Origin: Coriobacteriaceae bacterium | GTDB lineage: Bacteria > Actinomycetota > Coriobacteriia > Coriobacteriales > UMGS124 | DNA: 64,000 bases | Direction: 5' to 3' | Assembly (NCBI GenBank): GCA_019421015.1 | Contig: JAHZGC010000002.1 | Span: forward strand, 1,619-65,618 | Shown: positions 9,779 to 31,967 of the stretch, one piece after another | Layout: each line of letters opens with the position of its first letter | How positions within the stretch are numbered: the stretch's first letter is position 1 | The notes under the pieces: model-generated | What the model saw: the letters and a program-made list of their open reading frames with translations, nothing else | What the model was told of the DNA's origin: nothing | Databases searched by the model: none | Position numbers and translations under genes: made by a program

Positions 9779-9993
9779 GGCAGATAGCGCCGCGCTTTGG
9801 GGGTTCTGGATAGGCTCGCAGGTTGCCTGGGTGTCCCTGTTGAAGCGTGGTGTCTCCGGAGTTCTCTGCGCACCTGGTAAAACCACAGTTCAGGAGGTTG
9901 TTGGCAGCGAGGGTTTTCCGCTGCGGGCGAACGGGGTGCATCAGGGCCCCTTGCGGGCCTATCCAGAACCTCCTTTATGCGGAAACATCTCGG
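9779..9993. repeat. ~215-bp TIR element, copy 2
   Basis: GGCAGATAGCGCCGCGCTTTGGGGGTTCTGGATAGG (9779-9814) and CCTATCCAGAACCTCCTTTATGCGGAAACATCTCGG (9958-9993). Internal AAAACCACAGTTCAGGAGG block. Confidence 0.8.
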
Positions 9994-13255: not shown

Positions 13256-13396
13256 GGCGGCCGTGGGGCTCGATGGCTTGGGGTGCGGCGAACCATAATG
13301 AAGCATTACCGAAGCAATAGTGGGCCTCTCTGCCTGTCCTGGGGCATCGGAGTCCGGCCACCCGCGACAACTTGCACTCACGTCCGACGCCAAACC

Positions 13397-13611
13397 GGCA
13401 GATAGCGCCGCGCTGTGGGGGTTCTGGATAGGCGGTCCGGGGCCGAGGGAGCCCTTCTGCTCCCAAGGTCTTCTCCGCCGCAAAGGGGCACCCAATAAAC
13501 CCGCAGGTCAGAAGGGTGTTGGCTGCGAGATTTTCTCCCCTGCGCGCACATGGGGTACATCGGACCCCTCGCGAGCCTATCCAGAACCCTCATTCTGCGG
13601 AAGCATCTCTG
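13397..13611. repeat. ~215-bp TIR element, copy 3
   Basis: GGCAGATAGCGCCGCGCTGTGGGGGTTCTGGATAGG (13397-13432) and CCTATCCAGAACCCTCATTCTGCGGAAGCATCTCTG (13576-13611). Confidence 0.8.
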
Positions 13612-13644
13612 TTTCGGGGCCCCCTCGCCTGCACCGCCTCCCTC

Positions 13645-14727: not shown

Positions 14728-14951
14728 GGTGCTCCTTGCAGGTCGGGGTGGTCGTCCGCGGCGTTCGCAGGAGAGAAGACCGTGGGGGAGAAGCCCTGTG
14801 ATTCGGCCGAGAAGCTCTCGCGACGCGCCGGCGGATGCTTGCCGGGACCAGCATACGGGGGGCGGGCAAAGGATTGGCAAGGGCGGTGTAAAGGCTGCGT
14901 AAAGTCGGGGGAGGGGGTGCGCGGCTGGGGGTCGGGGCTAACGGTTTCGGG

Positions 14952-15245
14952 TGGCGCCAAAGGCGGGTTCGGTAAGGGTTAGCGGATTTGGGTGGCACCG
15001 GACCCGAATTGTGTAAGGGTCAAGTCCGAAGGCTGGCGCCAAGCTCGAGTTTTGTAAGGGGAAGGGCTGGGTGCTGGCACCAAAAGCGAGTTCTGTAAGC
15101 GCGCAATCCGACTTTCCGGACGAGAGGCCCTCGAATTACTTACACAGCGCCGATTTGGTGCCATTCTCACCCACTGATTCTTACAAAACTCTAGTTCGGT
15201 GCCACCATCCCGTTGGCAAGTTTACAGAACTCGCATTCGGTGCCG
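14952..15245. repeat. Phased motif array, family 1, locus A (4 direct + 3 inverted units)
   Basis: TGGC[A/G]CC-N11-12-TGTAAG units start at 14952, 14993, 15034 and 15075. Inverted units start at 15139, 15180 and 15221. Phasing is 41 bp with a 64-bp central step. Confidence 0.9.
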
Positions 15246-15692
15246 GACTCTCTGCGAATGTGCTTGCGAGACGGAGGCGCTACGGCGTTCGGACGGTCGG
15301 AGTTCGCTCGAAAAGGCCCTTTTCTGGCCGCGTCGCCGGGTCGTGCGGGACGTCGCAGTTCCTTGAAGGCACGCCTGTTAAGGTTTCTCAACTATCAAAT
15401 TGCTAAAACCGCAGGTATCGTCGGTGAACCTCCCGGGTGACACCTTGCTTTCGCCGTACATCGATGCGCGGCGCCGCCCGGCTATCCCGCACGACCGCCC
15501 CATGCGGCCACCGAAGGGGCTCAAACCAGAAAAGAAGAAGCAATTCATTTGTAAAATGATATATGCAGCGCTGGCGCGGGCGTCGCAGAGCCACAAACGG
15601 CCGGCTGCCCCGACTTTCGGACAACCGGCCGCCACGTCTTTCGCTTGCGCGTTCGTCCACCTGCGCGCTTGCCTTTATCTGCGCGTCTCGCC

Positions 15693-17612
15693 TTACTTGG
15701 TGTAGCTCACCGGCGTGCCGTCCACCGTGCCCTCGAGGCTCTCGAGCACGTAGTTGTAGACGATCGGGATCTCGTGGGTCGCGGCGATCTCGGCGCCCTC
15801 GGACTCGGTCACGTTCACGACCATCTCCATGGCGTCGATCTTCTGGCCGGTCAGGGCCTCGATCGAGGCAAAGAAGGCATCGTGGGCGCCGTCGCCCTTG
15901 CTCACCGTGCAGGGCGAGTCGGCCGCAGTGATGCCCAGGTCGGCGATGTTGAGCTGGTTGACGATGGTCTTGACCGCGGTGTTGGGGTTGGTGATCGAAG
16001 GCGCCGGGACCTCGGTGGTGCCCACCAGCTCGTGGGCGCAGTTGGCGGCGGTGCGGGCCGAGTTCACGCCGTGGCAGCTCATGGAGCCGTTGATGTCGAG
16101 GCCGTACACGTGGTTGTAGAGCATGCCGCCGTCAGCGCCGATGGCAAAGAGGTTCTCGAAGGCCTGGTCGCGGCCGGGCTTCTTCACGTGGAAGGTGCGG
16201 TCGGTCTTGACGCCGCCCGAGTACAGGCCCTCGAGCGCCCCGCGGATCAGGCCACAGTAGAACGGTGCGGTCTCGATGGGCATGAGGTACTGCGGGTCCT
16301 TGCCGTAGTCGCCGTCGATGCCGTTGGCCACGTGCTCGTTGTAGGTCGCGACCTGGGCCAGGAACAGCTCCTTGTCGACGCCCATGATGTCGGCGAGCTC
16401 CTCGAGGGTGTTGGCGGTGTAGGCGTCGTCGCCCTCGGCCACCATCTCGTCCCACAGGGTGCGGGCCTCCTCGTCGCCGTCGATCATGGCCTCGAGGATG
16501 TTGGCGTCGTACACGGCCCAGCAGGTGCCTCCGGCCAGACGCACGGGCACGTTCTGCAGCTCGAAGTTGTGGGTATAGGTCGAGACGGCCTCGTCGCTGA
16601 AGCGCTCGCCGTTGATGTCGACCCACAGGCTCGGGCCGCCCCAGCACAGCTTGTCCCAGATGGGGCCCCAGGGGCCGGCCGACCCGATGATGTTGGTGCA
16701 GCCAAAGGCCGGGGCGCCGTGGTCGATGCCGCCTGCCTCGATGATCATGTTCACACCGTCGCCGTAGTGGCCCGGGGTGCCGATGATGCGGATGTCCTCG
16801 ATGTCCATGCCCAGGCGCGCCCAGTGCTCGGCGTCCTCGCCAAAGCCGCCGGTGCCCACGATGATGGCGCGGGCGTTGATCTTGACCACGTCGCCGTAGG
16901 TGTCGGTGGCGTAGGCACCGGTCACGTTGCCGTCGGCGTCCTGGGCCAGGCTGCGCACGCGGGTGCCCATGCGCAGGTTCACGCCGTGGTCGGCCATCTG
17001 CTTCTTCATGGCCGGGAAGAAGCCCTGACCGGCGGCGCCGTTGGCGTACACGTAGTCAAAGCTGTACTCGGCACGGTAGCGGCCGGCCTTGTACATCTCG
17101 AGGTAGGCCGGGTCGAGCTCCTCGGTGGGGGTGTACTGCACGCCGTTGTCGATGAGCCACTGCACGTTGTCGGCCGCGTGGCTCACCATGTCGCGGATGA
17201 ACATCTGGTTCACGGTGTAGGCCTGCGACTTGGCCTCGAAGGCCACCATCTCGCCCAGGGTGACGTCGGCCGAGTTGGGGTGCAGGCCAAAGGCGTTGGT
17301 GCACTCGATGCCCAGGCCGTTGCCGCCCAAGAAGGTCTGGCCCTCTGCCAGGATGACCTTGTCGCCGTTCTGGGCCGCCTGCACCGCGGCGCAGGTGCCC
17401 GAGAAGCCGCCGCCCACCACGAGCACGTCGCAGGAGAGCTCCTCGGTGACCTTGCTCTCCCAGTCGTCCCCGGCGCGGGTGGCCACCTCGTACATCACGT
17501 CGTCGGCTGCGGCGTCGGCAAAGGCAAAGGCCGTGGGCACGGTGGCCAGAACGGCCGCGGCGCCGGCGCTCAGGATAAAGTTCTTACGGGTCAGAGCGGT
17601 AGAAGCTGCCAT
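15693..17612 (-). CDS. Exported FAD-dependent reductase (fumarate-reductase-like flavoprotein)
   Basis: Tat-like signal TRKNFILSAGAAAVLATVPTAFAFA. Dinucleotide fold DVLVVGGGFSGTCAAVQAAQNG. Conserved C-terminal FAD segment. Confidence 0.85.
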   Translation of the reverse strand: MAASTALTRKNFILSAGAAAVLATVPTAFAFADAAADDVMYEVATRAGDDWESKVTEELSCDVLVVGGGFSGTCAAVQAAQNGDKVILAEGQTFLGGNGLGIECTNAFGLHPNSADVTLGEMVAFEAKSQAYTVNQMFIRDMVSHAADNVQWLIDNGVQYTPTEELDPAYLEMYKAGRYRAEYSFDYVYANGAAGQGFFPAMKKQMADHGVNLRMGTRVRSLAQDADGNVTGAYATDTYGDVVKINARAIIVGTGGFGEDAEHWARLGMDIEDIRIIGTPGHYGDGVNMIIEAGGIDHGAPAFGCTNIIGSAGPWGPIWDKLCWGGPSLWVDINGERFSDEAVSTYTHNFELQNVPVRLAGGTCWAVYDANILEAMIDGDEEARTLWDEMVAEGDDAYTANTLEELADIMGVDKELFLAQVATYNEHVANGIDGDYGKDPQYLMPIETAPFYCGLIRGALEGLYSGGVKTDRTFHVKKPGRDQAFENLFAIGADGGMLYNHVYGLDINGSMSCHGVNSARTAANCAHELVGTTEVPAPSITNPNTAVKTIVNQLNIADLGITAADSPCTVSKGDGAHDAFFASIEALTGQKIDAMEMVVNVTESEGAEIAATHEIPIVYNYVLESLEGTVDGTPVSYTK

Positions 17613-17938
17613 GGTTTCTCCCCTTTGGCGTCAGGGGCGGGTCCCGTGCCCGCCCACCTGTGTGGCTGCCGGGCGTGCGGAGCGTGGGGGCGTCCGCCGT
17701 GCCCGGCGTGACCCCAGCGTGCCACGGCGCGGAAGGGCCCGGGTCGCGACAAACGGGCGATTGGGGGAGAAGTCACCCGATTGTGACGAGATGTTGACAG
17801 TACGTCAACACGGGTAGAAGGTCACGGCGGAAAAGCCCTGGGGATATCCGGCGGGGCGCACCTCGGCACGCCGCGCCCCGGCGCACCTCGGCACGCCGCG
17901 CCCCGGCGCGCCTTGTGCAGGGACTTTCTCAAAATGCT

Positions 17939-19579
17939 CTAAGTCTCCTGCTCCTGCACCAGGTCGAGCAGCTCCTGGCGTGTGTGGATGTCGAGCTTGG
18001 CGTAGATGTGGCGCACATGGGTCTTCACGGTGTTCTGCGACACGCATAGCTGCTCGGCGATGTAGGGGGCGCTGCGGCCGGCGAGCAGCAGCCCGAGCAC
18101 GCCCGCCTCGCGCTCGGTGAGGAAGTAGCGGGCCGCCATGGCGTTCACGGCGCTGACGTGCGCAGGTGTGGACCCTGCCGCCCCCGCCTCCGCGTGCTGG
18201 CATGTGGCCGATCCCGTGCGGTTCGGTTCTTGCGCCGGTAGGTTGTCGAGGCCGCTACCGGCGGATGCGCCAAAGGGTGCGCCGGGTTTTGTCGCCCTTC
18301 CTGATCGCACGCCGCCCGCCCGTACGCTGCCCGCGTGCGCGGCCTCCTCTGCAGGGAGGGCCCCGCGCAGGTCGTCGCGCACGGAGTGGGGGCGGCCCAG
18401 CACCAGAAGGGCCACCGCGAGCAGGGCTCCTCCCAGCACCATGGCCGCAAGGTCGATCCAGCTCTGCTGGGGGAGCAGGACGGCCAGTGCCATCCCGGCC
18501 GAGATCCCCACACCGTCGATGGCGTAGGCGATGCAGAGGAACCGGCGCATCGAGAGCGCCGACCCGTGGTGCACGATGACCAGCATGGCCCAGATGAGCA
18601 GGTCGAACACCGCATAGCCCGTCAGTACGAGCAGGTGCGAGAACACCGTGGCCACCGGTCCGAGTGCCGCCGTGGGCCCCAGGGCCAAAAGTCCGGCGGC
18701 GATGAGCGCGATGGCCACGACCAGAAACGTCTGGGGCTGCTTGGAGTAGAACACGTAGGCGCAGAACACCGCCAGCGCGCAGACGCCGCGGATGAGCAGC
18801 GACGCGTAGTCGAGGAAGGCGACCCCAAAGGCGTCTCGGGCGGTGGCGGGGTCCTGCGCCTCCATGAATCCGAAGGCCGCCGTGACCAGGATGAGCAGCA
18901 CGACATAGCCGCCGTAGCGTGGGTGCTCACGGTGCGATCTGGCGCTGTGTTGCGAGGTCTTCTCCACCGTGGCGAGGTTTTGGGCGTTGGTCCCGCGCAC
19001 TAGGAACACCTGGTAGCTCAGGGCCGAGAGCAGGGGGAGGAGCGCGCAGAGCACCACGGCCGCCCCGGGCTGCAAAAACATGCCGAGCAGCACGAACACC
19101 ACGTTGAAGGGCAGGCAGGCGGCAATGTGGATCAGGGCGTTGGTCTTGCCCTGGCATACCGCCACGCACCCCACCACGGCGGCGCCGACTCCCTGGTAAA
19201 GACCGGTGAGCACGGTGCCGCCCACCAGAAGTGCCGCCCAGCCGGTGGCAAAGCCGCCGTAGAGCGCGAGCGACCCCGCACCGCCCAGGACTAAAGACGC
19301 CCCGGCAAAGTAGGAGGGCTTGAGGCTGAGCGAGCGCAGGCGCCCCGAGAGGGCGTAGGCTGCCAGGGCCACCGCCCCGAGCAGCACCGACGCGACGGGT
19401 ACCCAGGCGAGGGGCCGGGCCATGGCAGCCTGGGGCAGAAGCGGGCTAAAGGGCACGAGGTCGAACCACGACCAGAAGAACGTGGAGACCATGAGCGCCG
19501 AGGGCGAGAGGTTGCCCACGAACCGGTCGAGGAAGCTGCGCAGGGGCAGTCCTTGTGCGCGGGGTTCGGTGACGGTCAC
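17939..19579 (-). CDS. Membrane-anchored LuxR-family transcriptional regulator
   Basis: C-terminal HTH LTEREAGVLGLLLAGRSAPYIAEQLCVSQNTVKTHVRHIYAKL. Start set at GTG 19579 after GAAGGAG. The ORF-track extension to 19888 runs through repeat array B. Confidence 0.75.
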   Translation of the reverse strand: MTVTEPRAQGLPLRSFLDRFVGNLSPSALMVSTFFWSWFDLVPFSPLLPQAAMARPLAWVPVASVLLGAVALAAYALSGRLRSLSLKPSYFAGASLVLGGAGSLALYGGFATGWAALLVGGTVLTGLYQGVGAAVVGCVAVCQGKTNALIHIAACLPFNVVFVLLGMFLQPGAAVVLCALLPLLSALSYQVFLVRGTNAQNLATVEKTSQHSARSHREHPRYGGYVVLLILVTAAFGFMEAQDPATARDAFGVAFLDYASLLIRGVCALAVFCAYVFYSKQPQTFLVVAIALIAAGLLALGPTAALGPVATVFSHLLVLTGYAVFDLLIWAMLVIVHHGSALSMRRFLCIAYAIDGVGISAGMALAVLLPQQSWIDLAAMVLGGALLAVALLVLGRPHSVRDDLRGALPAEEAAHAGSVRAGGVRSGRATKPGAPFGASAGSGLDNLPAQEPNRTGSATCQHAEAGAAGSTPAHVSAVNAMAARYFLTEREAGVLGLLLAGRSAPYIAEQLCVSQNTVKTHVRHIYAKLDIHTRQELLDLVQEQET

Positions 19580-19777
19580 GGAGACTCCTTCGGGGGAGGG
19601 CGGTGTCGTGCGGTGCTGTCTTGCGGGAGTATAGCGCGGCCTGCGGTGGCCCGTGCTCGTCGGGGTTGGGTGGCGTAGCGGGGCGCGTGCGGCATGGGAG
19701 CGCGCGTGGCATAAAACCGCGCAAATCGGGACGTTCCCGTCTGGCACGCCGTCGGCCGAAGGTGCCGGTGGCGTGCC

Positions 19778-20030
19778 GGGCACCAGGCTCGCGTTATGTA
19801 AGCCTCCGCGGCCCTGGGTGGCACCAACGGCGAGTTCTGTAAGTCCCGAAAGGAGAGAATGGCACCGAATCGGCGTTCTGTAAGTCACGGGGCGCGCATG
19901 TTGCCGGTTTTTGCCCCCCGGTCCTTACAAAACCCGCGTTCGGTGCCGCAGGAAGTCTCGCCGGTTTACACAACTCGCATTCGGTGCCAGCCCTGCCCGG
20001 GCGCCCTTACACAACGCCGGTTTAGTGCCA
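19778..20030. repeat. Phased motif array, family 1, locus B (3 direct + 3 inverted)
   Basis: Direct units start at 19778, 19819 and 19860. Inverted units start at 19924, 19965 and 20006. Same 41/64-bp geometry as locus A. Confidence 0.9.
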
Positions 20031-20064
20031 CCTGCCGGCCGTTGCTGCCTGTTTTCGCCTGCGC

Positions 20065-21550
20065 CTACCCCTTCCCGGTGTCGTAGGCGATGTCGAGCAG
20101 CTCGGACTGGGTGTGGATGCCCAGTTTCTTGTAGATGTGGGTCAGGTGGGTCTTGACCGTGCCTTCGGAGAGATGCAGCTCCCGGCACATGTTCTGCCGG
20201 GTCTCGCCCTTCACGAGCAGAACCAGCACCTCGCCTTCGCGGGCCGAGAGCGCGTATTCCTGGGCGACGTTTGCGCACCGCAGCTCAAGGGCTTCCTGCA
20301 GCATCTTTCCGTTGACGCCTGCGGTGAGGCGGCGCTCGCCGTCGAGCACGAAGGCGTTCAGGTCCTCCTCGCTGCTCGACGACCGCAGGTTCGTGCGATT
20401 GAACGCCTGGGGGTACACCATGCACGCGATGATGATGAGGTAAAAGACGATGAACACGGCCGACTCGGCGGCGGCCATCCGGTGCTCTAGGAACACGCTC
20501 CATACGAGGCCGGTTACGCTGCACGACAGCAAGCCGACACTAAACGCCCGGTAGATGGGCCAGCCCAAAGAGCCGGCAGCGTCGAGGGCCACGACCCAAA
20601 AGAGGATGTGCGCGTAGTTTTCGACCGTGACGAGCAGCCCGTCCACCACCTCGGCCGGCAGCGCGTAGAGCATCTGGCGCGACGACGTCAGGGCAAAGGC
20701 CGTGATGAGCACCAGCAGCGAGCTCTGGTAGCGCAGGGCGAGCGGCTTGCGCTCCTTGGACAAGAAGGTCGCGCGGCAGAGAAGCACCACGAGCAGGCAT
20801 TCGGCCATGGCGGCCAGGATAGACCACGTTTCGCCGGCATACTGGCCGCTGCCGGCGTTGCCCCAGATCCCCACGGTGCTCATGGCCCCGCAGGCTACCA
20901 GGCCCACGCCGGTCATGACGCACAGGGCCACGAAGTAGCGCTGGGCCGCGGCACCTCCCACCTCAGAGGGGGCGGCGGTGCGGCGGGGGCGGCAGTGGGC
21001 AAAGAGCCGGTCCGACAGCAAGAGCGCACCGACGCCCAGGACGGGAAGCGCGTAGGAAGCGACGATGAGCGCGGTCTCGTTCAGCAGGTAGCCGACCGTT
21101 TCCGCAGCCAGGCGCTCGAGGACTTGGGCCGCCACCAGCACGTACAGGGCTTCTCGCCGGGAATCGACGCAGGCGATGTAGGCGTACACGGCCGAGACGG
21201 CCCATATATGGCTGGCCCCTAGGAGCAGGGAGCCTGCGGCGCAGACCAGCAGCGGGTCGAACAGAGACTGATGGAACCCGAACGAGTAGAGCACCGTGCT
21301 GCCCAGCATGAGCCCGAGCACAGCGGGGGCCAGGCGTCCCGGCGACCAATCGATTTGGCGGGGGGAGAAGGGCGAAGAGGGCTGCGACCGCGACGCGCCC
21401 TACGTAGCACGCATAGTGGGCGGCCTCTTTTGCCCGGTCGGTCGCGGAGGGGTCGGCAAAGACGTCGAGGTAGCCGGTTATATCGACCCAGACGCCTATG
21501 AGCACGAGCGCGGCAAGGGACGCAAGCGATGCCCTGTGTTTGGTTAACAT
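20065..21550 (-). pseudogene. Membrane LuxR-family regulator interrupted by a +1 frameshift in a C6 (plus-strand G6) run
   Basis: The N-terminal 63 codons (frame of ORF 20963-21550) and the C-terminal 418-aa body with its LuxR HTH (ORF 20065-21321) join if one base is removed from the G run at 21360-21365. Confidence 0.7.
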
Positions 21551-21755
21551 AGCGTCAACACCTTGCCCCTCTTATCGGACAAACCGGATGATACCGCGCT
21601 TTAGCTGGCATTTGTAGCCCTTTGTCCGATAGGGGCGGCCGACGGGTCGTGCATCATTCGAGCCGTTGCCTACGCCCGGCGCAAACAACGCCCGGGTGCC
21701 CATCGGCGGGGTTGTACCGAAGGTGCCCCCGACTCACGAACCCAAGGAGCTCAAC

Positions 21756-23681
21756 ATGATCGATTGCATCGGTGTCATTGGCGGAGAAGCCCGTTCCCTG
21801 AGCCGCCGCTCGTTCATCGCTGCCGCCGGTGTTGCGGCGGCGGCCGTCCTGGGGCCCCGCACGGTGCTGGCTACCGAGTCGAGCGCACCGGCCGTGCAGA
21901 TGACTCCCGGTGTTTACGAGGTCACGGCCCAGGGATGCTACGCCCCCTACACCGTCGAGGTGGAGGTGTCCGAGGATGCCATTGTGGATGTGCGCGTGAC
22001 CGACACCCACGAGTCCAAGTACATGGGCCAGCGTGCGCAGGAGACCATCGCCAAGAACGTCGTGGAGCACCAGACGGTCAACGTCGACAGCATCACCGGC
22101 GCCACGATCACCACGACGACCATGAAGGACGCGATCCGCCAGGCTTTGACCGAGGCCGGCGCATCGGAAGACATGTTTGCCGACGACGCGGTGACCCCTG
22201 AGCCCGCCGGTGTCGACGGGGAGCTTGCGGAGTTTGCCCCCGACGTCATCGTGGTAGGCGCGGGCATCGCCGGTCTCACCGCGGCTCTTACCGCGGCTGA
22301 CCGGGGGGCCAAGGTGCTGGTCCTGGAGCAGAACACGTGCTTCGGCGGCTCCACCATGTACAGCGGCGGCTACATCGCCGCGGCCGGCGGCACCACGCTG
22401 CCCCAGTACGGCTACGAGACCGACCCCGACCGGCTGTACGCGTGGTTCATGGACGGCGATGAGTCCACGTTCCGTCCCGAGCTCTCGTACGTGGCCGCCT
22501 ACAACAGCGGCGCCGCCCTCGACATGCTGACCAAGTACGGCGCCGCCTGGCTCGAAGGCGGTCCCATCGGCGACGGCGTGGGCGCCCACAGCAACAACGC
22601 CTCCGCGGGCAACTCCACCGAGGGCGTCGACTACTTCGCGGCCTACCTCATCTCCTCGGAGCAGCGCGGCCTGAGCATCTTCGAGGGCACTGCCGACGCC
22701 GTGCAGGGCCTCGTCGACGAGGGCAAGCTGGCCTATGCGCTTAACGCCAAGGTGGTCGAGCTCGTCACCGACGAGGCCGGCGCTGTGGTGGGTGTGCGCA
22801 CCGAGGACGGCGGCGAGTATCGTGCGCCTGCGACGATCCTCTCGTGCGGCGGCTACTGTGCCAACGAGGAGATGCTCTCCGAGATCTACACCCGCTGGGC
22901 GCGCTCGGGCAACTCGAGCTCCATCGGCAACATGTTCGCCGCCGCCACCGCGATCGGTGCCGTGCTGCACGACATGGACTTCTGCCGCACCGACGGCGGC
23001 ACGCTGCCCATGTACGAGGGCAACGGCATGCCCGTGCACCGCGAGATCCAGTTCAAGACCCCCGGCCTGGTGTGGCTCAACACCGACGGCGTTCGCTTCT
23101 GGAAGGAAGGCTCCAGCCCGGCCCGCGCCTACTTCGACACCGACCGCAACACGGTGTACTGCGTTGCCAACCAGGCGCTTCTCGACACCGTCGACATGAT
23201 CTACTACGGTAACTACGCCACCTACGTGACCGACAGCAACAACGAGGAGCTCGAGCGCCTGGCCCAGGAGGGCAAGGTCGTGTTCAAGGGCGAGACCATC
23301 GAGGAGGCGGCCGAGAAAGCCGGGCTTGACCCGCAGGTCGTGGCCGCCGAGATGGCCAAGTACAACGGCTACTGCGCCGCCGGGGTCGACGAGGACTTCG
23401 AGAAGGACGCCAGCGCGCTCATCGCCATGGAGGAGGGGCCCTTCTACATCTTCGAGACCATCCCCAACGTCAAGAACACCTACGGCGGCCTGGTCATCGA
23501 CGAGGGTGCCCGCGTGGTCGACGCCGCCGGCGAGCCCATCCGCGGCCTCTATGCCGCCGGCGAGACCGCGGGCAACTATAACATCGTGCGCCCCACCGCC
23601 TCGTACTACGGCGGCAACCTGCACCGCGGTGCCACCTTTGGCTACACGGCCGCACTGAGCGCCATCGCCGACTTCGCGTAA
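21756..23681 (+). CDS. Tat-exported FMN_bind + FAD flavoprotein reductase (urocanate/fumarate-reductase-like)
   Basis: ATG 21756 after AAGGAG. Tat signal LSRRSFIAAAG. FMN_bind domain with VDSITGATITT. FAD fold DVIVVGAGIAGLTAALTAADRG. Confidence 0.85.
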   Translation: MIDCIGVIGGEARSLSRRSFIAAAGVAAAAVLGPRTVLATESSAPAVQMTPGVYEVTAQGCYAPYTVEVEVSEDAIVDVRVTDTHESKYMGQRAQETIAKNVVEHQTVNVDSITGATITTTTMKDAIRQALTEAGASEDMFADDAVTPEPAGVDGELAEFAPDVIVVGAGIAGLTAALTAADRGAKVLVLEQNTCFGGSTMYSGGYIAAAGGTTLPQYGYETDPDRLYAWFMDGDESTFRPELSYVAAYNSGAALDMLTKYGAAWLEGGPIGDGVGAHSNNASAGNSTEGVDYFAAYLISSEQRGLSIFEGTADAVQGLVDEGKLAYALNAKVVELVTDEAGAVVGVRTEDGGEYRAPATILSCGGYCANEEMLSEIYTRWARSGNSSSIGNMFAAATAIGAVLHDMDFCRTDGGTLPMYEGNGMPVHREIQFKTPGLVWLNTDGVRFWKEGSSPARAYFDTDRNTVYCVANQALLDTVDMIYYGNYATYVTDSNNEELERLAQEGKVVFKGETIEEAAEKAGLDPQVVAAEMAKYNGYCAAGVDEDFEKDASALIAMEEGPFYIFETIPNVKNTYGGLVIDEGARVVDAAGEPIRGLYAAGETAGNYNIVRPTASYYGGNLHRGATFGYTAALSAIADFA

Positions 23682-23753: not shown

Positions 23754-24046
23754 TGGCGCCAAAGAGGGTTCTGTAAGTCCGGGACGCCCCGGGTGGCACC
23801 GAATGCTTGTTTTGTAAGTCTCGACGACCCCGGGTGGCACCAGACGCGAGCTCTGTAAGCCCGGGTAGCGGAATATGGCACCGGATCGGTGTTTTGTAAG
23901 CCCGGGTGTGCGCATAACGCCGGTTTTTGCGTGCGAGTTCTTACAAAACTTGCATCTGGTGCCAGCTTGGGCCAGCTGGCCTTACACAACGCCGATCCGG
24001 TGCCATTGGCTGCGCCGGACTTTTACCAAACCCGTATTCGGTGCCA
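23754..24046. repeat. Phased motif array, family 1, locus C (4 direct + 3 inverted)
   Basis: Direct units start at 23754, 23794, 23835 and 23876. Inverted units start at 23940, 23981 and 24022. Central step 64 bp. Confidence 0.9.
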
Positions 24047-24078: not shown

Positions 24079-25443
24079 CTATCGTCGCCCCCCGAACGGC
24101 CCCTGGTCGCAGCTCGTCTCCACCGCAAAGCGCGCCAGCTCGTCGACGACCACCGCATGTCGCCCTGCAGGGGAAAGCCCCGGCACCCCCAGTATCCCAA
24201 GCGCCCTCCCGAGTTCTTCTCCCAGCCCGCTCTGGGCGAGAAGCCCCGCCACTTGGTCTGCCAGGTCAAAGTAGTACGAGACGGACTCGGGCTTTGAGAT
24301 GCGGTAACGGCAGCCGAACGCGCAGCGCTTGTCGAGGGCCTGGAGCTTGCGGGGCGAGAACGGGTGGCAGTGGCCGGGCTCGTGGAGAAACAGCAGTGTG
24401 GCGGCCGTGCGGTAGGTGGCGCTTGCCGATGGCCGGGCAACGGCGCTGCAGATGAGGCTGCGCTGGCGCTCGATAAGAACGGCGCAGGCGTCCGTGAAGG
24501 GGGCGATGCGCTCCTCAAGCGGGCGGTCGGGGGAGAAGAGCCTGCCGAGGGCACCCCCGAAGACCTCGGGTTCTTGGCTGGTAAAGACGCCCAGCTCCCT
24601 ATAAGCACCCCGGGCGCCGCATTCGTCCAGCAAGGGCGCCCCGTCTTCGAGGCATCGGCCGAGCATCGACGGTAAATCGGGCGTCGCAGGATCCCAGTGC
24701 CGGCCAAAGTCCGCAGCCGCCCGGGCCGACGCCGGGGCCTGGCGGGTGGGGCGCTCCCCCAACCGGTCGAGGAACTCCCGGGCGAGCCCCTCTGTCTGCT
24801 CAGGGTCGATGCGGGGCGCTCGCCTCTGCGGCAGGGCGGGGGTGGCGCCGCGTGCTAGGGCCTCCAGGAACTCGGGGGGCGTGGAGGGCGTGCCTGCTGG
24901 GGGGGCCACCCGCAGGGGGTCGATCCGCCACTGCTGCGTCGCCAGGCCCGTGCGGGCGGGGATTTTGGACCGGGCGACGGCGTCATAGGCGTGAATAAAG
25001 GCGCAGACAAGGGCGTCGCGCTCGTCCGCATCCTCGGCATCGCCGGCGGACAGCCCCATGGCGGCGGCAAACAGGTCCCACAGCCGCTCGATCTCCTCGC
25101 CCATGGTTTTGTCCCGGTGCGAGAACATGCGCACCTGATAGTCCTCGACCTCGGGGCAGTCATAAAACGAGGGGGTCTCAGCTACCTCGAGCTCCAGGGC
25201 TTCGCAGACCAGCAGGAACAGGCGTTCCTTGCGGGCCTCGGGCATGGGGCGGCACCAGGCGGCCATGAAGGTGAAGGGGTCCAGGGCGTCGAGCGCCTCT
25301 CCGGCTTCTACGATGGGGAACTGCACGCAGCAGGTTTCGAGCGCCCAAGAAAGGGAGTCGACGAGCCCCTCTTTGTCGTTGCGGCGCGCGAGCAGCCTCT
25401 TGGCCACCGATCGGTGAGCCTGCGCCCAGCTGGGTTTTTCCAT
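24079..25443 (-). CDS. Hypothetical protein (454 aa), no recognisable domain
   Basis: Long ORF with GC-rich third positions and a GGAGAGGAGA SD before ATG 25443. No TM segments or motifs recognised. Confidence 0.6.
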   Translation of the reverse strand: MEKPSWAQAHRSVAKRLLARRNDKEGLVDSLSWALETCCVQFPIVEAGEALDALDPFTFMAAWCRPMPEARKERLFLLVCEALELEVAETPSFYDCPEVEDYQVRMFSHRDKTMGEEIERLWDLFAAAMGLSAGDAEDADERDALVCAFIHAYDAVARSKIPARTGLATQQWRIDPLRVAPPAGTPSTPPEFLEALARGATPALPQRRAPRIDPEQTEGLAREFLDRLGERPTRQAPASARAAADFGRHWDPATPDLPSMLGRCLEDGAPLLDECGARGAYRELGVFTSQEPEVFGGALGRLFSPDRPLEERIAPFTDACAVLIERQRSLICSAVARPSASATYRTAATLLFLHEPGHCHPFSPRKLQALDKRCAFGCRYRISKPESVSYYFDLADQVAGLLAQSGLGEELGRALGILGVPGLSPAGRHAVVVDELARFAVETSCDQGPFGGRR

Positions 25444-25569
25444 AGCGAGGTCGTCTCCTCTCCGCCCAGGGGTTTCTCAAAACTCCCTGGCCAACGGGCC
25501 GAACCCGCCGAGGTGCGGAGCCGGCCCGTCGTTATCTCGCCCATGCGGCGCAAGCCGCCGCACTTCTCT

Positions 25570-26040
25570 TTAGATCTCGATGCTCGGGATCTCCGCGTGG
25601 GCGTCTCCGCCGGCGGCGTTGATGCCCGCCATGCGCCCGAAGGTCACGCAGCGGCCGTGGCCGATGCCGGCGACGAAGGTGGGGTAGTCGCCTGCGCCGA
25701 AGAAGTCGCCGGCGGCCGAGCCGCAGACGTAGAGCCCCTCGATGGGCTGGTCGTCCTCGTCGAGCACGCGGCACTGCAGGTCGGTGCGCAGGCCGCCGCA
25801 CATGGTGAGCAGGCAGGCCTGCAGGTGGCCGGCGTAGAACGGCGGGTTCTTGACCGGGTAGAGGATCTCGGCGCGCTTGCCGAAGTCCTCGTCGTTGCCG
25901 TTGTCGCAGAGCTCGTTGTAGCGCTCGACCTCGGCCACGAACACGGCGGGGTCGCAGCCGATCTGCTCGGCCAGCTCCTCGAGCGTGTCGGCCTGGAAGG
26001 TCAGGCCGCTTTCGAGCTCGCCCTCCAGGGTCGCCTTCTG
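25570..26040 (-). pseudogene. C-terminal remnant of a flavoprotein reductase (5' part deleted)
   Basis: ...ADTLEELAEQIGCDPAVFVAEVERYNELCDNGNDEDFGK...PIEGLYVCGSAAGDFFGAG... aligns with the last ~155 aa of the intact paralogs. There is no N-terminal domain or start. Confidence 0.7.
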
Positions 26041-26074
26041 GGCGTCGATAGGCCGGGGTTGCAACCGGGGTTCC

Positions 26075-26221
26075 ATCGCCGACGAGCACGGTGTGTCGCG
26101 CGAGACCGTGAAGACCCACATCGCCGGCATCTACCGCAAGGTCCACGTCCATTCGCACCAGGAGCTGATCGCCGCCCTCGAGGCGAGGGCGGCCCAGGTC
26201 GAGAAGGACGAGACGACGTAG
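26075..26221 (+). pseudogene. C-terminal stub of a LuxR-family HTH
   Basis: IADEHGVSRETVKTHIAGIYRKVHVHSHQELIAAL is only the second half of a LuxR HTH. The upstream sequence is the opposite-strand reductase remnant. Confidence 0.65.
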
Positions 26222-26254
26222 GGGCGGGTGGGGTGGAGAGGGGAGATACCCTAT

Positions 26255-27568
26255 CTATGGCTTCAAACATCCCAGCGGCACCACATATACCCCGTCCGGC
26301 CTGCGATAGGCATAGTGCGTGGGGGTGATGACCAGCAAAAACGACGGCGCGCCCATCACATCGTGGTCGATGCGCCCGGCGAGCTTGAGGAGGTTTGCAG
26401 CCCCCTCGTCCACGAGCGATGCGCCCAGCTTGACCTCCACCAGGCCCCAACGTCCGTCCCGAAGCACGACCGCGGCGTCGGCCTCGAGGCCCGTTGCGTC
26501 GCGGTAGTGGAACACATCCCCTTTGAGCGTCTGGGCGTAGACCCGTAAATCGCGCACGGCCATTGACTCGAACAGGAGGCCCAGGGTGGGAAGGTCTTTG
26601 AGCAGGATCGCGGGGCTGGCTCCAAGTGCGGCCACCGCTAGGGAGGGGTCAACGAAGTGCCTGGTGGGGGTGGTCGCTATCCGGGTCTTTGAGCGTAGCG
26701 ACGGTGTCCAGGCCGGGAGGTCCTCAAAGACGTAGAGGGCTCGCAAGGCCGCCACATAGGAGTCCACCGTTCCGCGCGAGAGCTCGCTTTTTTGGGCCTT
26801 GATGGTTCCGCGAATGGTGGCCATGTCTGCTTGTGTGGCCGTGCACCGCGCGTAGGCCTGCATGATGAGGCGGGCGTACTGGGGATTTCTGCGGGCTCCG
26901 TCCACACGCGATACGTCTTCTTCGGCAACGGCCTCGATGTAGTCGTAGGCGGTTTCGAGCGCGTCTTCACCTCCGAGCACAACGGCTGCCGGCCATCCCC
27001 CACGGCATAGCGAGTAGACCATGGGTTCCAGGTTTCCGGGCGCTGAGCCGCGTATCTCTCCACCGTCAAAGAGCGTCGAAAGCGAGACTTCGCCGCTGGA
27101 CTCCTGCGATTCGAACAACGACATGGGTCTCATGGTGAGAAAAGAGAAGCGCCCTGTGCCCGAGTGCTTTGGACGCTCGTTGGCATGCAGGGGTGTTGCC
27201 GATCCCGTGAGGATAAAACGACTCTTTTCTCCGCTTTGATCGACGGCAAACCGTACGGCATCCCATAGTTGGGGGGCGACCTGCCACTCGTCGATGAGGT
27301 GCGGAGCCGCTCCATCCAAGAGCAACGACGGCTGGGCCTGCGCAGCAATCAGGTTGTTCTCGTAGCTGTTGGGGTCTTGCATGTAGACGGCACTGTTTGC
27401 CTGTCGGGTACAGGTGGCGGTTTTGCCGCACCACTTTGCCCCGCGAACGAGGACTGCGCCCGAGCGATTGAGTTTTCCGGTGAGTTCTTGGTCGGCAAAG
27501 CGAGGTAGATAAGCGGAAGGCAAGATAGCTCCAAAGCGTTGTAGTAAAATACCTGGTAAATAGCTCAA
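26255..27568 (-). CDS. AAA-type ATPase with DUF4143-like C-terminal region
   Basis: YLPRFADQELTGKLNRSGAVLVRGAKWCGKTA (Walker A-like GxxGxGKT variant) and overall similarity to the common stand-alone 'ATP-binding protein/DUF4143' family. TTG start is uncertain. Confidence 0.75.
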   Translation of the reverse strand: MSYLPGILLQRFGAILPSAYLPRFADQELTGKLNRSGAVLVRGAKWCGKTATCTRQANSAVYMQDPNSYENNLIAAQAQPSLLLDGAAPHLIDEWQVAPQLWDAVRFAVDQSGEKSRFILTGSATPLHANERPKHSGTGRFSFLTMRPMSLFESQESSGEVSLSTLFDGGEIRGSAPGNLEPMVYSLCRGGWPAAVVLGGEDALETAYDYIEAVAEEDVSRVDGARRNPQYARLIMQAYARCTATQADMATIRGTIKAQKSELSRGTVDSYVAALRALYVFEDLPAWTPSLRSKTRIATTPTRHFVDPSLAVAALGASPAILLKDLPTLGLLFESMAVRDLRVYAQTLKGDVFHYRDATGLEADAAVVLRDGRWGLVEVKLGASLVDEGAANLLKLAGRIDHDVMGAPSFLLVITPTHYAYRRPDGVYVVPLGCLKP

Positions 27569-27572
27569 TTGT

Positions 27573-27658
27573 GCAGATTGCAGCGTTTCCGTTAGGCAGA
27601 TTGTAGCACTTTCATTGTGCAGATTGCAGCGTTTCCGTTAGGCAGATTGCGGTCTGCC
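27573..27658. repeat. 23-bp tandem repeat x3.7 in divergent intergenic region
   Basis: GCAGATTG[C/T]AGC[G/A][T/C]TT[C/T]C[G/A]TT[A/G][G/T] units start at 27573, 27596, 27619 and 27642. Confidence 0.85.
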
Positions 27659-27737
27659 CCCTTCGCGCGCCGTCCTTCTCGCCCACGAACTGCGCTACAC
27701 TGGGCAGCCACTCCAAAATAATCGGGAGGAGGCCCCC

Positions 27738-29642
27738 GTGCCCGAGGACGTACCCAACGCGGCCACCGCGACCGTCGCAACCACTGAGCCCAATGTGCCC
27801 AATGCATCCACCGAGTTTGCCCCACCCACCGCGCCGGCGGACGCCCCCAGCGCGCCGTCGTCCGCGCGCTGGATAGCCTACCTCGTCAAATCCGCCGTGC
27901 TCATCGGCCTGCTGTACCTGTTCGCCCGCTGTGCGGGTATGCTGCCGCCGTTGGTCATCGCGTTGGTATGGGCGGTTCTGAGTGCCGTCTCGGCCGTGGG
28001 GCTTACCTACCACCGTGTGGTGCGCAAGACCCTCAAGCAGCACGAATACGCCGAGAAGGGCCTCCTCTCGCGGCTCAACAACGGGCGTGTGGTCTGCCTT
28101 GTGGTGTCGTTTGCCGCCTCGGCCTGGTGCATGGCGGGGCTTATCCTCGAAGCGCCTACCTGGGATTTGGCCGAGTGGGTCCTCATGGCGGTCGCCATAC
28201 CCCTCTACCTGGGCGTTTATCTGCTTGTGCAGCGCTGTCTGCGCCGTGAGTATAAGCCGGTGTACCGCGCTTCGAGGGTAACGCTGCTCAGCTGCACAAT
28301 CGCGGCCGTTCTGTTGGCTGCAGCCTATGCGGGCATCGGCCAGCTGCAGCCGGCCCAGACCTTCACCAGCGCGTCCGAGGCATTCCTCTCGGTGGATCAG
28401 CCTTTCGAGAGCTCCCCGTCCGCCCTGGCAACCGAGGCGGGCACGATATATGCGCTGGTCGACGGCTTTGCGGCCTACGGCACCGCGCGCGCAGCGGAAG
28501 CCTCGCCGGTCGGTTATGTCCTCTGCCGGGCGCTGCTGGTCTTCTCGGCCCTCTGCGGCGTTGCGAGCCTTCTGGGCCTGTGCTCCCTGCGCTGGTCCGA
28601 GCTCAAGCGTGTATTTCTGCCGCTCGATGCGGGTACCTCGCCGGATGCGGTGCCTACTCAGGTCGTGAAGCGCAACATCGTGGTGGCCGTCGTGCTGCCC
28701 GTCGCACTCGTGGGACTGTACACGGCGGCCGACTCCGCGGTTGCCAAGGCCGCCCAGACCCAGGAGTACACCGCGGCTCAGCTCTTCGTGCGCGACCAGG
28801 TTGACCTGGCCGTCTACGTGCTCGACGGCACTTACTACGAGTACCAGGCCGTGCAGGAGGCGCTCAACCAGGCCAAGCTCGACGCGGCGGCGCTGGCCGA
28901 GGAGGCCCAGGCGACCCTGGTGCCGCTGATCAACGCCTCCTACGACGCGCGCGTCGCCAACGTCGACGCCTACCTGGACTGGTACTACAGCCTCCCAGCC
29001 GACTACGAGCGCTTGCTGAGCCTCATCACCGGCTCGGTGGAGGAGTTCGCGCAGGACCAGTTCGTGGCGCAGATCGAGGCCGGCGTCGACGACACCGCCT
29101 TCGAGGCCCAGCTCCAAACCTACTGGGACCGCGCCGAGGCCCTCAAAGACAACCTTATGGAGCAGATCGCCGAATGCGAGATTGCCGGGATCCCGGAGTG
29201 GCTCCCCGAGGTAAAGGACGAGGTCACGGCCGACGCTTTGCTGGAGCCCCTTGAGCCGAGCGAGCAGTTTGCGAGCGCGGGCGAGCGCCTGCTGACCAGC
29301 GCCGGAACGGGCACGGCCGTGGGCGTGGGCACCGGCATCGCAGCAAAGAAGCTGGTAGGCAAGGTGGTGGAGAAGTCCTTCTTCAAGACGATCGTCTCCG
29401 AGATCACCAAGCGTCTGGGCTCCCGGGCCGTGGGGTCGGCGGTTGGCGGCGTTGTGGGTGCCGTGGGCGGTCCGGTTGGCGTCGTGGCGGGTGTTGCGGC
29501 CGGAGGGGCCGCAGGCGTCGGCGTGGACTACGGGCTGCTCAAGCTCGACGAGCTCTGGAACCGTGAGACCTACAAGGCCGAGGTCGTGCAGACCATCGAG
29601 GACGCCCGCGCCGAGATGCTCGCGGCGGTGGAGGGGGAGTAG
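27738..29642 (+). CDS. Large polytopic membrane protein with C-terminal glycine-zipper segment, unknown function
   Basis: GTG 27738 after GGGAGGAGG. Several hydrophobic helices in the first ~330 aa, then an acidic helical middle. C-terminal SAVGGVVGAVGGPVGVVAGVAAGGAAGVGV. Confidence 0.65.
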   Translation: MPEDVPNAATATVATTEPNVPNASTEFAPPTAPADAPSAPSSARWIAYLVKSAVLIGLLYLFARCAGMLPPLVIALVWAVLSAVSAVGLTYHRVVRKTLKQHEYAEKGLLSRLNNGRVVCLVVSFAASAWCMAGLILEAPTWDLAEWVLMAVAIPLYLGVYLLVQRCLRREYKPVYRASRVTLLSCTIAAVLLAAAYAGIGQLQPAQTFTSASEAFLSVDQPFESSPSALATEAGTIYALVDGFAAYGTARAAEASPVGYVLCRALLVFSALCGVASLLGLCSLRWSELKRVFLPLDAGTSPDAVPTQVVKRNIVVAVVLPVALVGLYTAADSAVAKAAQTQEYTAAQLFVRDQVDLAVYVLDGTYYEYQAVQEALNQAKLDAAALAEEAQATLVPLINASYDARVANVDAYLDWYYSLPADYERLLSLITGSVEEFAQDQFVAQIEAGVDDTAFEAQLQTYWDRAEALKDNLMEQIAECEIAGIPEWLPEVKDEVTADALLEPLEPSEQFASAGERLLTSAGTGTAVGVGTGIAAKKLVGKVVEKSFFKTIVSEITKRLGSRAVGSAVGGVVGAVGGPVGVVAGVAAGGAAGVGVDYGLLKLDELWNRETYKAEVVQTIEDARAEMLAAVEGE

Positions 29643-29841
29643 AGGACGCGTTCAGGGTAAAATCACCCACAGCCAAAAGGGGCGGTTTCGCGCGTGCGCG
29701 CCGACGTAGCGGAGGATTTGGGCTACGCCGAACCTGGCGATTTGGTCGTCGCCGCGACGAGCGAGCACGTCGAGGACGTTTGCAAGGCGGTCGATATCAA
29801 GAAGTCTATGCTCGAGAAGATGTTTGTTTAGGAGGGCGGGA

Positions 29842-30402
29842 ATGGAAAAGCTGATTCTGTTTCACGGTGCTCCTGACAAAGTCGTAGTGCCAACATACGG
29901 TAGGGGCGAAGAAAAGCACGACTACGGCCGTGGTTTCTACCTTACCGGAAGCCTAGACCTTGCGAAGGAATGGGCAGTTTGCAGGCCTAGTTAAGTGAAC
30001 GGCTGGGTTCATAAATATGAACTTGATACCAGTGATCTTAAAATCTTGGATTTTCAAAACGAGGGCGTTCTTCCTTGGCTTGCCGAGTTGATGAAGCATA
30101 GGGATGCGGCGGACTCCAAACGCTATCGCGTGCTCGCAAAGAAGTTTATCGATAAGTATGGCGTGGACACTGCCGGATTCGATGTCATCAAGGGCTGGCG
30201 GGCGAATGCCTCCTATTTTTATATTGCCAGGGAATTCGTGCGGGACAATATCGACATGGACATTCTCGAAGAATTACTTTCTTTGGGAGATTTAGGCATC
30301 CAGTACTGCATTAAATCAGAGCTTGCGTACTCCAAGCTCCATGAGCTCGAAAGCGATTTGCAGGCTGTGCCCTACGAAGAGTTTAACGAGAGGTATAACT
30401 AG
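29842..30402 (+). pseudogene. DUF3990-like (putative ADP-ribosyltransferase-fold) gene with in-frame TAA at codon 51
   Basis: MEKLILFHGAP...HDYGRGFYLTGSLDLAKEWAVCRPS-TAA(29992-29994)-VNGWVHKYELD... The same frame continues to 30402. GGAGGG SD before ATG 29842. Confidence 0.7.
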
Positions 30403-30494
30403 AGAGACGTTATTGCCAGGCGAAAGATGTGCGAACTTGTTGACTCCGACGCTAACCGTGTGACAAGGGTGTTCAGCACGCTATTTGAGGAGCG

Positions 30495-30920
30495 ATGACC
30501 ATGGGGGCATATGCACAAGACTATCTAAACGATGTGGTCGAAAATCAAGGTAAGCTCTTTGATATCATCGCTCAAACCCACCCCGAGGCCGACACCGAGG
30601 ATTTCATCAAGGCCTATATGGCAAGCAAGACGAGAAAAGGCATCGATGAGGGAAAAGCCTACGTTAATACCATGAGCGCCAAAGAGCTGTGGGCCTACTT
30701 TACCGAAACGGAAGGATATTCCCTGAAGCCCGGCAAGGCGCTTGATGGCTTTATGCCCGACTGGATTGGGGAGTTCTATGCCTACTATCAGTGGTATTAC
30801 GATATCCCAAGCAGCGAAGTGCTGAAAGAGGTGCCGCTTGAGTTTTTAAAGAAGGCCTACTGCGGCTTGCATGACCTAGAGCTTGACCTAGCGGTGCAAA
30901 AGGTCGGCGGAGCGAAATGA
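30495..30920 (+). CDS. Hypothetical protein; C-terminal half resembles DUF3791
   Basis: 141-aa ORF in the lower-GC island. GAGGAG SD (the start may be the second ATG at 30501). The tail ...AYCGLHDLELDLAVQKV resembles the Y-x2-LH end of DUF3791 proteins, which usually accompany DUF3990. Confidence 0.5.
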   Translation: MTMGAYAQDYLNDVVENQGKLFDIIAQTHPEADTEDFIKAYMASKTRKGIDEGKAYVNTMSAKELWAYFTETEGYSLKPGKALDGFMPDWIGEFYAYYQWYYDIPSSEVLKEVPLEFLKKAYCGLHDLELDLAVQKVGGAK

Positions 30921-31390: not shown

Positions 31391-31521
31391 AGCGTCTTGA
31401 GAACGCCTATGAGGATATTGACGGTCTGGTTGCGACCGGTAGGTATGCTTGGTGATACAAACGACGGCTCTTTGTGCCGCAATATATGCTGGCGGTCGGC
31501 TCTTCAGGGTAGTGCAATTGT

Positions 31522-31841: not shown

Positions 31842-31869
31842 GAGGCGCGGTTAAGGCCAAGACGCAAGA

Positions 31870-31916
31870 GGGCGCGGCCCCGGGGCAACTGCCTTCTGGG
31901 GTCGCGCCCGTTTTTT
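31870..31916 (+). terminator. Intrinsic terminator
   Basis: GGGCGCGGCCCCGG ... CTGGGGTCGCGCCC stem followed by GTTTTTTGG. Confidence 0.55.
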
Positions 31917-31967
31917 GGAGCGCGTGAGACTGAGGTCCTCTGCTGGCCGTTCTTCGCCGGTTCGCCC

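Follow-up and report, generated by a model that had tools for sequence, protein, structure and literature searches.

Array B, six copies of a 25-nt unit set in two inverted arms, lies between two genes for LuxR regulators in a 64,000-nt stretch of a Coriobacteriaceae genome (assembly GCA_019421015.1, contig JAHZGC010000002.1, positions 1,619 to 65,618; hereafter the window). It belongs to a family of such arrays, F1, which on the sequences compared here appears to be a previously undescribed, lineage-specific family of interspersed intergenic repeats. We read F1 at this site as a repeat akin to miniature inverted-repeat transposable elements (MITEs) and bacterial interspersed mosaic elements (BIMEs) that may serve as a phased protein-binding platform with a host-level role in cis, a reading to which we give about an even chance of being correct. 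One observation in its favour is purifying selection, seen between host lineages, on the units resident at B.

Anatomy of array B and constraint on its units

Array B spans 253 bp (window 19778-20030) and consists of three direct and three inverted 25-nt units. Neighbouring units of the same orientation start 41 bp apart and the inner, inverted pair 64 bp apart, giving a full geometry of 41/41/64/41/41. An earlier note on this DNA had placed units at 19778, 19819 and 19860 and at 19924, 19965 and 20006 with this 41/64-bp geometry, and all six were located there. The unit consensus, derived from 30 units, is T-GGCACC-RRAYNCGRG-TTNTGTAAG; it is non-palindromic, and the units are oriented with their TGTAAG ends towards the centre and their TGGCACC ends outward. 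Three conserved blocks (GGCACC, CG.G and TGTAAG) are spaced about one helical turn apart within the unit, and the 41-bp spacing corresponds to about four turns. The sequence GCCGGTTTTTGC, said in the note to recur at the centres of arrays B, C and, inverted, E, is exact in B (19903-19914) and C (23919-23930), at offset 18 in both centres, while the inverted copy in E (44472-44483) agrees at just 10 of 12 positions. Over their whole length, the centres of B, C and E (E inverted) are 64–69% identical.

Selection was assessed by Fisher test on a 2,244-bp ungapped alignment of the window with the orthologous locus L101. The units differ at 1 of 150 positions, the spacers at 3 of 64, the centre at 5 of 39, which makes it the fastest-evolving part of the array, other non-coding DNA at 15 of 350 and the third codon positions of the adjacent LuxR gene at 43 of 547. 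Units are thus more constant than all other non-coding DNA taken together (23/453; p = 0.014) and than third codon positions (p = 0.0004), and their sole change is a window-specific departure from the consensus. Since the units are kept constant in the population, a host-level role in cis is most likely at B. In L101-L103, the upstream LuxR gene and reductase gene lack 764 and 310 bp, and all six units of array B are intact; that the units persist beside a decaying upstream LuxR gene is consistent with a function in cis connected with the LuxR-reductase module downstream.

The same architecture recurs throughout the window. A search for GGCACC-N9-TTCTGTAAG with up to three mismatches returned 31 matches against 1.10 expected (0 of 100 shuffles gave as many), and an F1 position weight matrix (PWM) returned 30, each scoring above 26 bits, with the range from 10 to 26 bits empty; shuffled sequences gave 0–2 matches above 10 bits. 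All 30 units fall within five arrays of like geometry (A to E; Table 1), and solitary or decayed units are absent from the 64 kb. The arms measure 64–123 bp and the arrays 212–294 bp. When the window arrays are taken together with L005, a locus described below, the same-orientation spacing is 41 bp in 24 of 24 cases and the centre 39 bp in 6 of 6. Units are 75–77% identical, with likeness within an array not exceeding that between arrays, and the spacers are near random (overall identity 0.29–0.33 vs 0.27 expected), so that conservation is confined to the sites. Given that the conserved blocks are one turn apart, that the period is four turns and that the geometry is constant despite scrambled spacers, we infer that these arrays are cooperatively bound by protein on one face of the duplex.

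At least eight related families (F1-F8) share the arm-centre-arm layout; together they amount to about 20 elements in 64 kb and occupy about a third to a half of the intergenic regions of the window. They have partial motifs in common (TGGCA.., ..CGAG.. and GTTC.G.A..). F2 and F3 are phased at exactly 41 bp, and spacings of 51/52 and 62 bp occur as well; inner distances of 54, 64 and 118 bp across families differ by about whole turns. The arms of F6, of about 42 nt (..AGAT..CCGC..GGTTCTGGATAGGC) and 110–155 nt apart, are conserved, and its interior mostly is not. The array F2b carries a 10-bp duplication that changes a spacing from 41 to 52 bp and keeps the helical phase, and F2a is polymorphic in unit number, with 2+1 units in the window against 2+4 in L009, where it is 123 bp (3 x 41) longer. 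The F2b duplication is one of those that repeat, in tandem, the first ten bases of a unit (TGGCAGAAAA / CCGGTTTCTG) at array edges (44154-44173 and 53553-53576).

Genomic setting and distribution

The window comes from a gut bacterium and has a gene content characteristic of Eggerthellaceae, including PFOR, ferredoxin-domain proteins, an oxalate module and membrane LuxR/GerE regulators that pair with flavin reductases. Array B begins 34 bp past the stop codon of the LuxR gene at 20065-21550 and ends 199 bp ahead of the GTG start of the LuxR gene at 17939-19579, which forms a pair with the reductase gene at 15693-17612. It covers 253 of the 485 bp between the two LuxR genes (52%), which corrects the earlier note's picture of an array filling almost the entire gap. 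Nor is 20065-21550 one gene with a single open frame, as assumed there: residues 1-63 are in the frame of the open reading frame 20963-21550 and the remainder in that of 20065-21399, a frameshift relative to intact 494-aa orthologues, and its nearest named relatives are proteins of Raoultibacter and Gordonibacter (63–64% identity). With its adjacent reductase gene and the deletions in L101-L103, it makes up a decaying module of regulator and reductase. Between the downstream LuxR gene and its reductase gene lies a perfect 25-bp tandem repeat (2.4 copies, 17855-17913).

The proposal that array B coincides with the promoter space of 17939-19579 holds in so far as the array is upstream of this gene and its units are conserved, but the core promoter space lies elsewhere. 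The array is probably upstream of the likely core promoter and not on it, because it stands 199 bp from the start codon, the candidate -10 hexamer TATACT is outside it, a consensus scan found no sigma-70-type promoter in 19400-20300, including the array centre, and the family also occurs between convergent genes. The family itself is thus an interspersed repeat that can come to lie upstream of promoters, and not a promoter. Arrays A, D and E lie 225–345 bp upstream of a gene start (199–345 bp with B included), arrays B, C and D begin 33–113 nt after a stop codon, and the arrays are nearer to stop than to start codons. Downstream of array A is a likely Na/Pi promoter block that is kept in the sister species: the non-coding sequence CTTTACGCAGCCTTTACA..TTGC.A..TTTGCCCG..CCGTATGCTG (window 14840-14904, L094 10406-10470), located upstream of the Na/Pi cotransporter gene, the true start of which is near 14727 and not at 14880.

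Exact-pattern scans of 185,579 species genomes gave no match to F1, whether as a single unit or as two phased units. The closest PFOR in this collection is at most 67% identical, from which we conclude that the host genus is not represented in it. The F2 pattern gave seven scattered single matches in unrelated phyla, about the chance level. F1 had no match in 1.66 Mb of fetched loci outside the host species, nor in a plasmid BLAST search. The scan of viral contigs for the phased pattern returned no F1 and merely an unrelated AT-rich 41-bp tandem repeat with an GGCACAAAAAAAGTGCC hairpin (L011 44-400 and L012 13984-14158), a chance match. Rfam and tRNA scans gave no hits, and full-text literature searches found no published description of F1-type arrays. 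F1 was detected in two other metagenome contigs of lower G+C: a complete 2+3 array of 41/64 geometry in L005 and one arm at the contig end of L004. Other families of this kind occur in relatives, namely in L008/L094, in the Eggerthellaceae metagenome-assembled genome (MAG) L070, in Adlercreutzia (L014 and L017) and, as one element, in Raoultibacter massiliensis.

Contigs of the same species keep arrays B, C and D (L010, 99.8% identical; L009, 97.8%; L093, about 97%). The sister species, with proteins 81–86% identical, have no F1 at the orthologous sites: at the position of D, L007 and L008 carry a different gene, and L007 shows a 120-bp array-free gap after its orthologue (85% identical) of the reductase 21666-23681. 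In L094 a gap of 157 bp separates the orthologue of LuxR 20065-21550 from the Na/Pi transporter gene that comes next, so the block comprising array B, LuxR, reductase, an F8 array and array A is missing there. Arrays are often found at synteny breaks, and their density differs strongly between sister species. In L101, which is about 95% identical, an F2 array follows the reductase gene in place of array C and the neighbouring gene. This array is homologous to window F2b over the full length of the array and nothing else, from the outer TGGCA to the outer TGCCA, in a different context (identity 78% in units, 50% between units and 32–39% outside). Since the homology ends at the array edges in different contexts, and the centres of B, C and E are likewise related, an array is evidently copied or moved entire, its limits being the outer TGGCA/TGCCA.

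Some further observations concern the regions around the other arrays. The region 38175-42708 holds a formyl-CoA-transferase-like gene, a gene for an oxalyl-CoA-decarboxylase-like thiamine pyrophosphate enzyme and a Mem_trans permease gene, likely an oxalate-degradation module, beside PFOR; synteny extends to L007 and L008, and in the window arrays D and E flank the module. A 30-bp tandem repeat, CGCCCGGTTCGCGAACGGTTCGCGCACGGA (33491-33644, about 4–5 copies, 92–94% identical), abuts the PFOR stop codon, and at the matching position L008 and L094 have a different phased array (TGGCGGATTGTCCTGGGATGTGTACGA, 62-bp spacing). A variable island (24079-33422) encodes a DUF8425 protein (24079-25443), an AAA_14/DUF4143 protein, a FAD_binding_2 gene fragment and an AlbA_2/HATPase_c_4 protein, and its low-G+C stretch (53% at 30-32 kb) carries DUF3990 and NADAR genes; the gene content of the island is different in L094 and L101. 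A 23-bp tandem repeat (3.4 copies, 27568-27650) separates genes 26255-27568 and 27738-29642.

Table 1. Array B, its parts and neighbours, and the other phased arrays (window positions unless a locus is named)
Feature	Position	Strand	Remarks
F1 array B	19778-20030	.	3+3 units of 25 bp; unit search and PWM
Unit L3 (outer left) GGGCACCAGGCTCGCGTTATGTAAG	19778-19802	+	weakest unit, 26.8 bits (PWM)
Unit L2 TGGCACCAACGGCGAGTTCTGTAAG	19819-19843	+	PWM
Unit L1 (inner left) TGGCACCGAATCGGCGTTCTGTAAG	19860-19884	+	PWM
Centre of array B, 39 bp	19885-19923	+	asymmetric motif GCGCAT..GCCGGTTTTTGC; T-tract 19903-19914
Unit R1 (inner right) CGGCACCGAACGCGGGTTTTGTAAG	19924-19948	-	PWM; 1-nt deletion in strain L093
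Unit R2 TGGCACCGAATGCGAGTTGTGTAAA	19965-19989	-	PWM
Unit R3 (outer right) TGGCACTAAACCGGCGTTGTGTAAG	20006-20030	-	T at unit position 7 window-specific; consensus C in other lineages
GC-rich 14-nt inverted repeat (GGCACGCCGTCGGC / GCCGGTGGCGTGCC)	19743-19777	.	abuts left edge of array B
Candidate -10 hexamer TATACT of gene 17939-19579	19628-19633	-	sole good -10-like hexamer found by eye; outside array B; no call in consensus scan
Membrane LuxR gene	17939-19579	-	546 aa; GerE helix-turn-helix at residues 487-540; GGAG-N5-GTG start at 19579; intact in all lineages seen
LuxR gene, orthologous to 494-497-aa proteins	20065-21550	-	frameshifted in window; large deletions in L101-L103
F1 array A	14952-15245	.	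4+3 units
F1 array C	23794-24046 (23754-24046 with defective unit)	.	3+3 units; convergent genes either side
Defective fourth outer unit of array C	23754-23777
F1 array D	37861-38072	.	2+3 units; flanked by perfect 5-bp direct repeat CGAGC
F1 array E	44356-44608	.	3+3 units; centre inverted relative to B and C
F2 arrays (TGGCAAGAAAT.CGAGAAATCAGGA)	37663-37782, 44071-44294		41-bp phasing; directly beside F1 arrays D and E
F2 arrays outside the window	L009 450-692; L101 889-1108
F3 array	53342-53567		close relative in a distant Eggerthellaceae MAG, L070 11305-11501
F4 array	55940-56183
F5 array	56819-57029		units are 28-nt palindromes
F6 arrays	968-1177, 9790-9973, 13391-13612, 59869-60089, 61331-61540, 62694-62901		at least six copies
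F7 arrays	7510-7752, 43032-43255
F8 arrays	4980-5156, 15314-15521		F8b adjoins F1 array A

Possible function and competing explanations

Under the reading we favour, each 25-bp unit would be bound by one sequence-specific DNA-binding protein or protomer, and the 41-bp spacing would set the units of an arm on one face of the helix. With the two arms opposed across the T-tract centre, a cooperative oligomer could fold or wrap about 250 bp. Array B lies approximately 145–400 bp upstream of the likely promoter of the pair 17939-19579 / 15693-17612, where such a complex might regulate the LuxR-reductase module from upstream or insulate it from read-through; the binder could be a transposase-like protein, a membrane LuxR regulator or another factor. 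As judged from the sequences, copy-and-paste spread of the MITE/BIME kind must account for the arrays, given their multiple families, lineage-specific expansion, whole-array homology, TG...CA ends and the duplication flanking array D. Several points weigh against a functional platform. No protein was identified as the binder of the F1 unit, and the 64 kb contain no transposase, integrase, recombinase, Par or Rep gene. Distances from array to start codon vary (199–345 bp) and array C has no downstream gene, with no common regulatory geometry visible. Units can decay, as shown by the 1-nt deletion within unit R1 of strain L093, and the selection test is based on one locus and two or three lineages. 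Moreover, some 20 arrays per 64 kb, all families counted, are far above what is expected of a specific operator, and selfish spread alone could explain them.

That F1 is nothing more than a selfish, non-autonomous transposon, with units that serve as transposase-binding sites at each end and no host function at B, we consider unlikely. The outer termini are 5'-TGGCA...TGCCA-3', and under this explanation the arms would synapse across a bent centre. Much of the anatomy agrees with it: F1 arrays have inverted arms, TG...CA termini and a size of about 250 bp, they are present in five copies in 64 kb, and their 41-bp period leaves them without coding capacity. So does their distribution, with many related families, a sharply different density between sister species, copies of whole arrays in different contexts, a motif common to contigs of different G+C and positions closer to stop than to start codons. 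Presence/absence polymorphism is also seen, as F1 is absent from the orthologous sites in L007, L008 and L094 and an F2 array replaces array C in L101. The neutral decay expected of resident copies is, however, not observed, either in the unit changes at B or as degenerate units elsewhere in the window, and purifying selection on resident units is not predicted for a selfish copy. Neither the window nor any fetched locus yielded an autonomous partner or a transposase. Target-site duplications were sought for all families at several boundary offsets, and D alone was positive. The perfect repeat there agrees with the selfish explanation; that none was seen at A, B, C, E or in L005 counts against it and also against our own. 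The CGAGC repeat at D occurs in both strains, which share one insertion, and its chance expectation is about 0.0015 per site, or about 0.03 after multiple tests. Finally, the constant centre length and the inter-arm distances differing by about whole turns suggest a constraint on the array in place. The functional platform is favoured because purely selfish spread predicts neither the selection on units, nor the lack of decayed units, nor the inter-arm phase constraint.

Considering the location of array B, F1 might instead be the operator set of the lineage-specific LuxR regulator 17939-19579, a member of a family with 10–12 transmembrane segments, with autoregulation at B and arrays A to E as a regulon or as membrane tethers; we regard this as improbable. 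Array B is upstream of this gene, A and B bracket the LuxR-reductase module, and the block from B to A is wholly absent from the sister species L094. Like F1, this LuxR has no close relative in the species genomes (best 45%), and the existence of several motif families would accord with that of several LuxR paralogues. The unit ends CTGTAAG and TGGCA resemble lux-type box half-sites. An increase in DadR protein after dopamine exposure in Eggerthella lenta (PMC9734109) suggests possible autoregulation of such regulators; the same paper gives no operator, and no published operator of the regulator family was found for comparison. Against an operator, array C and several arrays of other families have convergent genes on either side, no array is present in the classical divergent LuxR-reductase intergenic region (21550-21756), and arrays also adjoin housekeeping genes. 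They are not enriched beside LuxR genes (3 of 5 flanking regions vs about 40% of all intergenic regions), and a 25-bp non-palindromic site is atypical of dimers with a GerE-type helix-turn-helix. The broader proposal that the F1-F8 arrays are the DNA targets of the expanded Eggerthellaceae family of membrane-spanning LuxR proteins, or of another paralogous binder family, with one array family per regulator group, is improbable as well; arrays would then bracket modules, and membrane-anchored oligomers would fold about 250 bp, tethering and insulating metabolic modules. If true, mobile and phased operator cassettes would here provide a novel way of controlling genes.

An RNA element, in which transcripts entering from one flank or the other would form a long imperfect hairpin out of the two arms and so terminate or stabilize the 3' ends of flanking genes, is in our view very improbable. 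Repetitive extragenic palindromes (REPs), BIMEs and enterobacterial repetitive intergenic consensus (ERIC) elements terminate or stabilize 3' ends, array B folds much better than shuffled sequences (RNA z = -6.03; DNA z = -3.64), arrays B, C and D begin shortly after stop codons, and C lies between convergent genes. However, no partner-specific covariation was found, the spacers are neither complementary nor conserved, which would leave 16x16-nt internal loops, and what is conserved is sequence and helical spacing rather than pairing. Rfam gave no match, and the centre has no canonical terminator. Likeness between symmetric partner units does not exceed that between non-partners (0.53 vs 0.54 vs 0.56), so the hairpin potential is a by-product of inverted units, and a hairpin RNA or cruciform as the selected form was rejected for lack of partner covariation. 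An intrinsic terminator was also rejected, the sole weak terminator-like site being inside unit R1. We find it hardly credible that F1 arrays, like att or attC sites, delimit and shuffle gene modules through site-specific recombination. Arrays A, B and C coincide exactly with the borders of blocks in which lineages differ, each array has a polarity owing to its asymmetric centre, and the layout of arms around a core is like that of attP arm sites. There is no recombinase nearby, however, the 'empty' site in L094 has no array and hence is no simple excision product, the oxalate module between D and E occupied its ancestral place without any arrays, and the array density makes coincidence with breakpoints expected.

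Other candidates were rejected outright. A sigma-54 promoter (TGGCAC-N5-TTGC, with GG and GC ten bases apart) fails since the TGC, absent from most units, is two bases too close where present (GG-N8-GC), and a coding function is excluded by the 41-bp period. A CRISPR array does not accord with degenerate repeats in two inverted arms, 16-nt spacers (vs at least 26 nt) and no cas genes. A plasmid or phage centromere or an iteron origin is contradicted by five chromosomal loci, no Par/Rep domains, no plasmid match and unrelated viral hits. The unit also departs from the REP/BIME definition, as it has no internal dyad and is arranged in direct triplets per arm instead of alternating.

Comparison with known systems

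Eggerthellaceae are involved in drug, phytochemical and neurotransmitter metabolism in the gut and carry dozens of reductase/LuxR modules. Should the arrays be bound by a dedicated protein and act in cis, they would be a major unrecognized layer of genome organization or regulation in this clade; if they are transposon-derived, they would offer a clear bacterial case of multi-site miniature elements, similar to those of the inverted repeat/direct repeat (IR/DR) type, kept by host-level selection. In the search for a binding protein, the 25-bp unit is a ready bait.

F1 shares with BIMEs and REPs, especially BIME-1/RIP with its two inverted REPs around an IHF site, their abundance, intergenic location and species-specific families, as well as short units of a protein-bound type inverted around a central bend-type motif, variable linkers and a frequent position at 3' ends and between convergent genes. 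REP units, however, are imperfect palindromes of alternating orientation, the hairpins of which are recognized by RAYT transposases, whereas F1 units are non-palindromic, arranged as direct triplets per arm and strictly phased at 41 bp; no RAYT (Y1 transposase)-like gene was seen in the 64 kb. MITEs and transposons with multi-site ends (the TnsB sites of Tn7, L1-3/R1-3 of Mu, IS21 and the IR/DR elements Sleeping Beauty and Tc3) resemble F1 in their size of about 250 bp, their lack of coding sequence, inverted arms of 2–4 direct copies of a 22–30-bp asymmetric site, TG...CA termini, many copies, whole-element copying and lineage-specific expansion. F1 differs from them in showing a target-site duplication at one of six copies, host-level purifying selection on resident units, an identical 41-bp spacing in both arms and a constant centre, with no autonomous partner known.

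Phased operator arrays, such as the MalT boxes at malK/malE, the six Lrp sites of pap and the NarL heptamers, also combine asymmetric direct and inverted sites at whole-turn spacing, and they assemble cooperatively with DNA bending, as we infer for F1. They are promoter-anchored and few per genome, whereas F1 arrays also lie between convergent genes, at variable distances from start codons, within a superfamily of about 20 arrays per 64 kb. Plasmid centromeres and iterons (parC of R1 with 5+5 repeats, sopC of F with 43-bp repeats) likewise have phased repeats and form a wrapped complex, and parC has two arms around a centre as F1 does. They are, in contrast, single loci beside par or rep genes with all repeats direct, while F1 has five chromosomal copies and no Par or Rep genes. 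Thus, interspersed intergenic repeats are themselves known, and what would seem to be new in F1, going by its sequence, is the strictly phased multi-site architecture together with host-level constraint.

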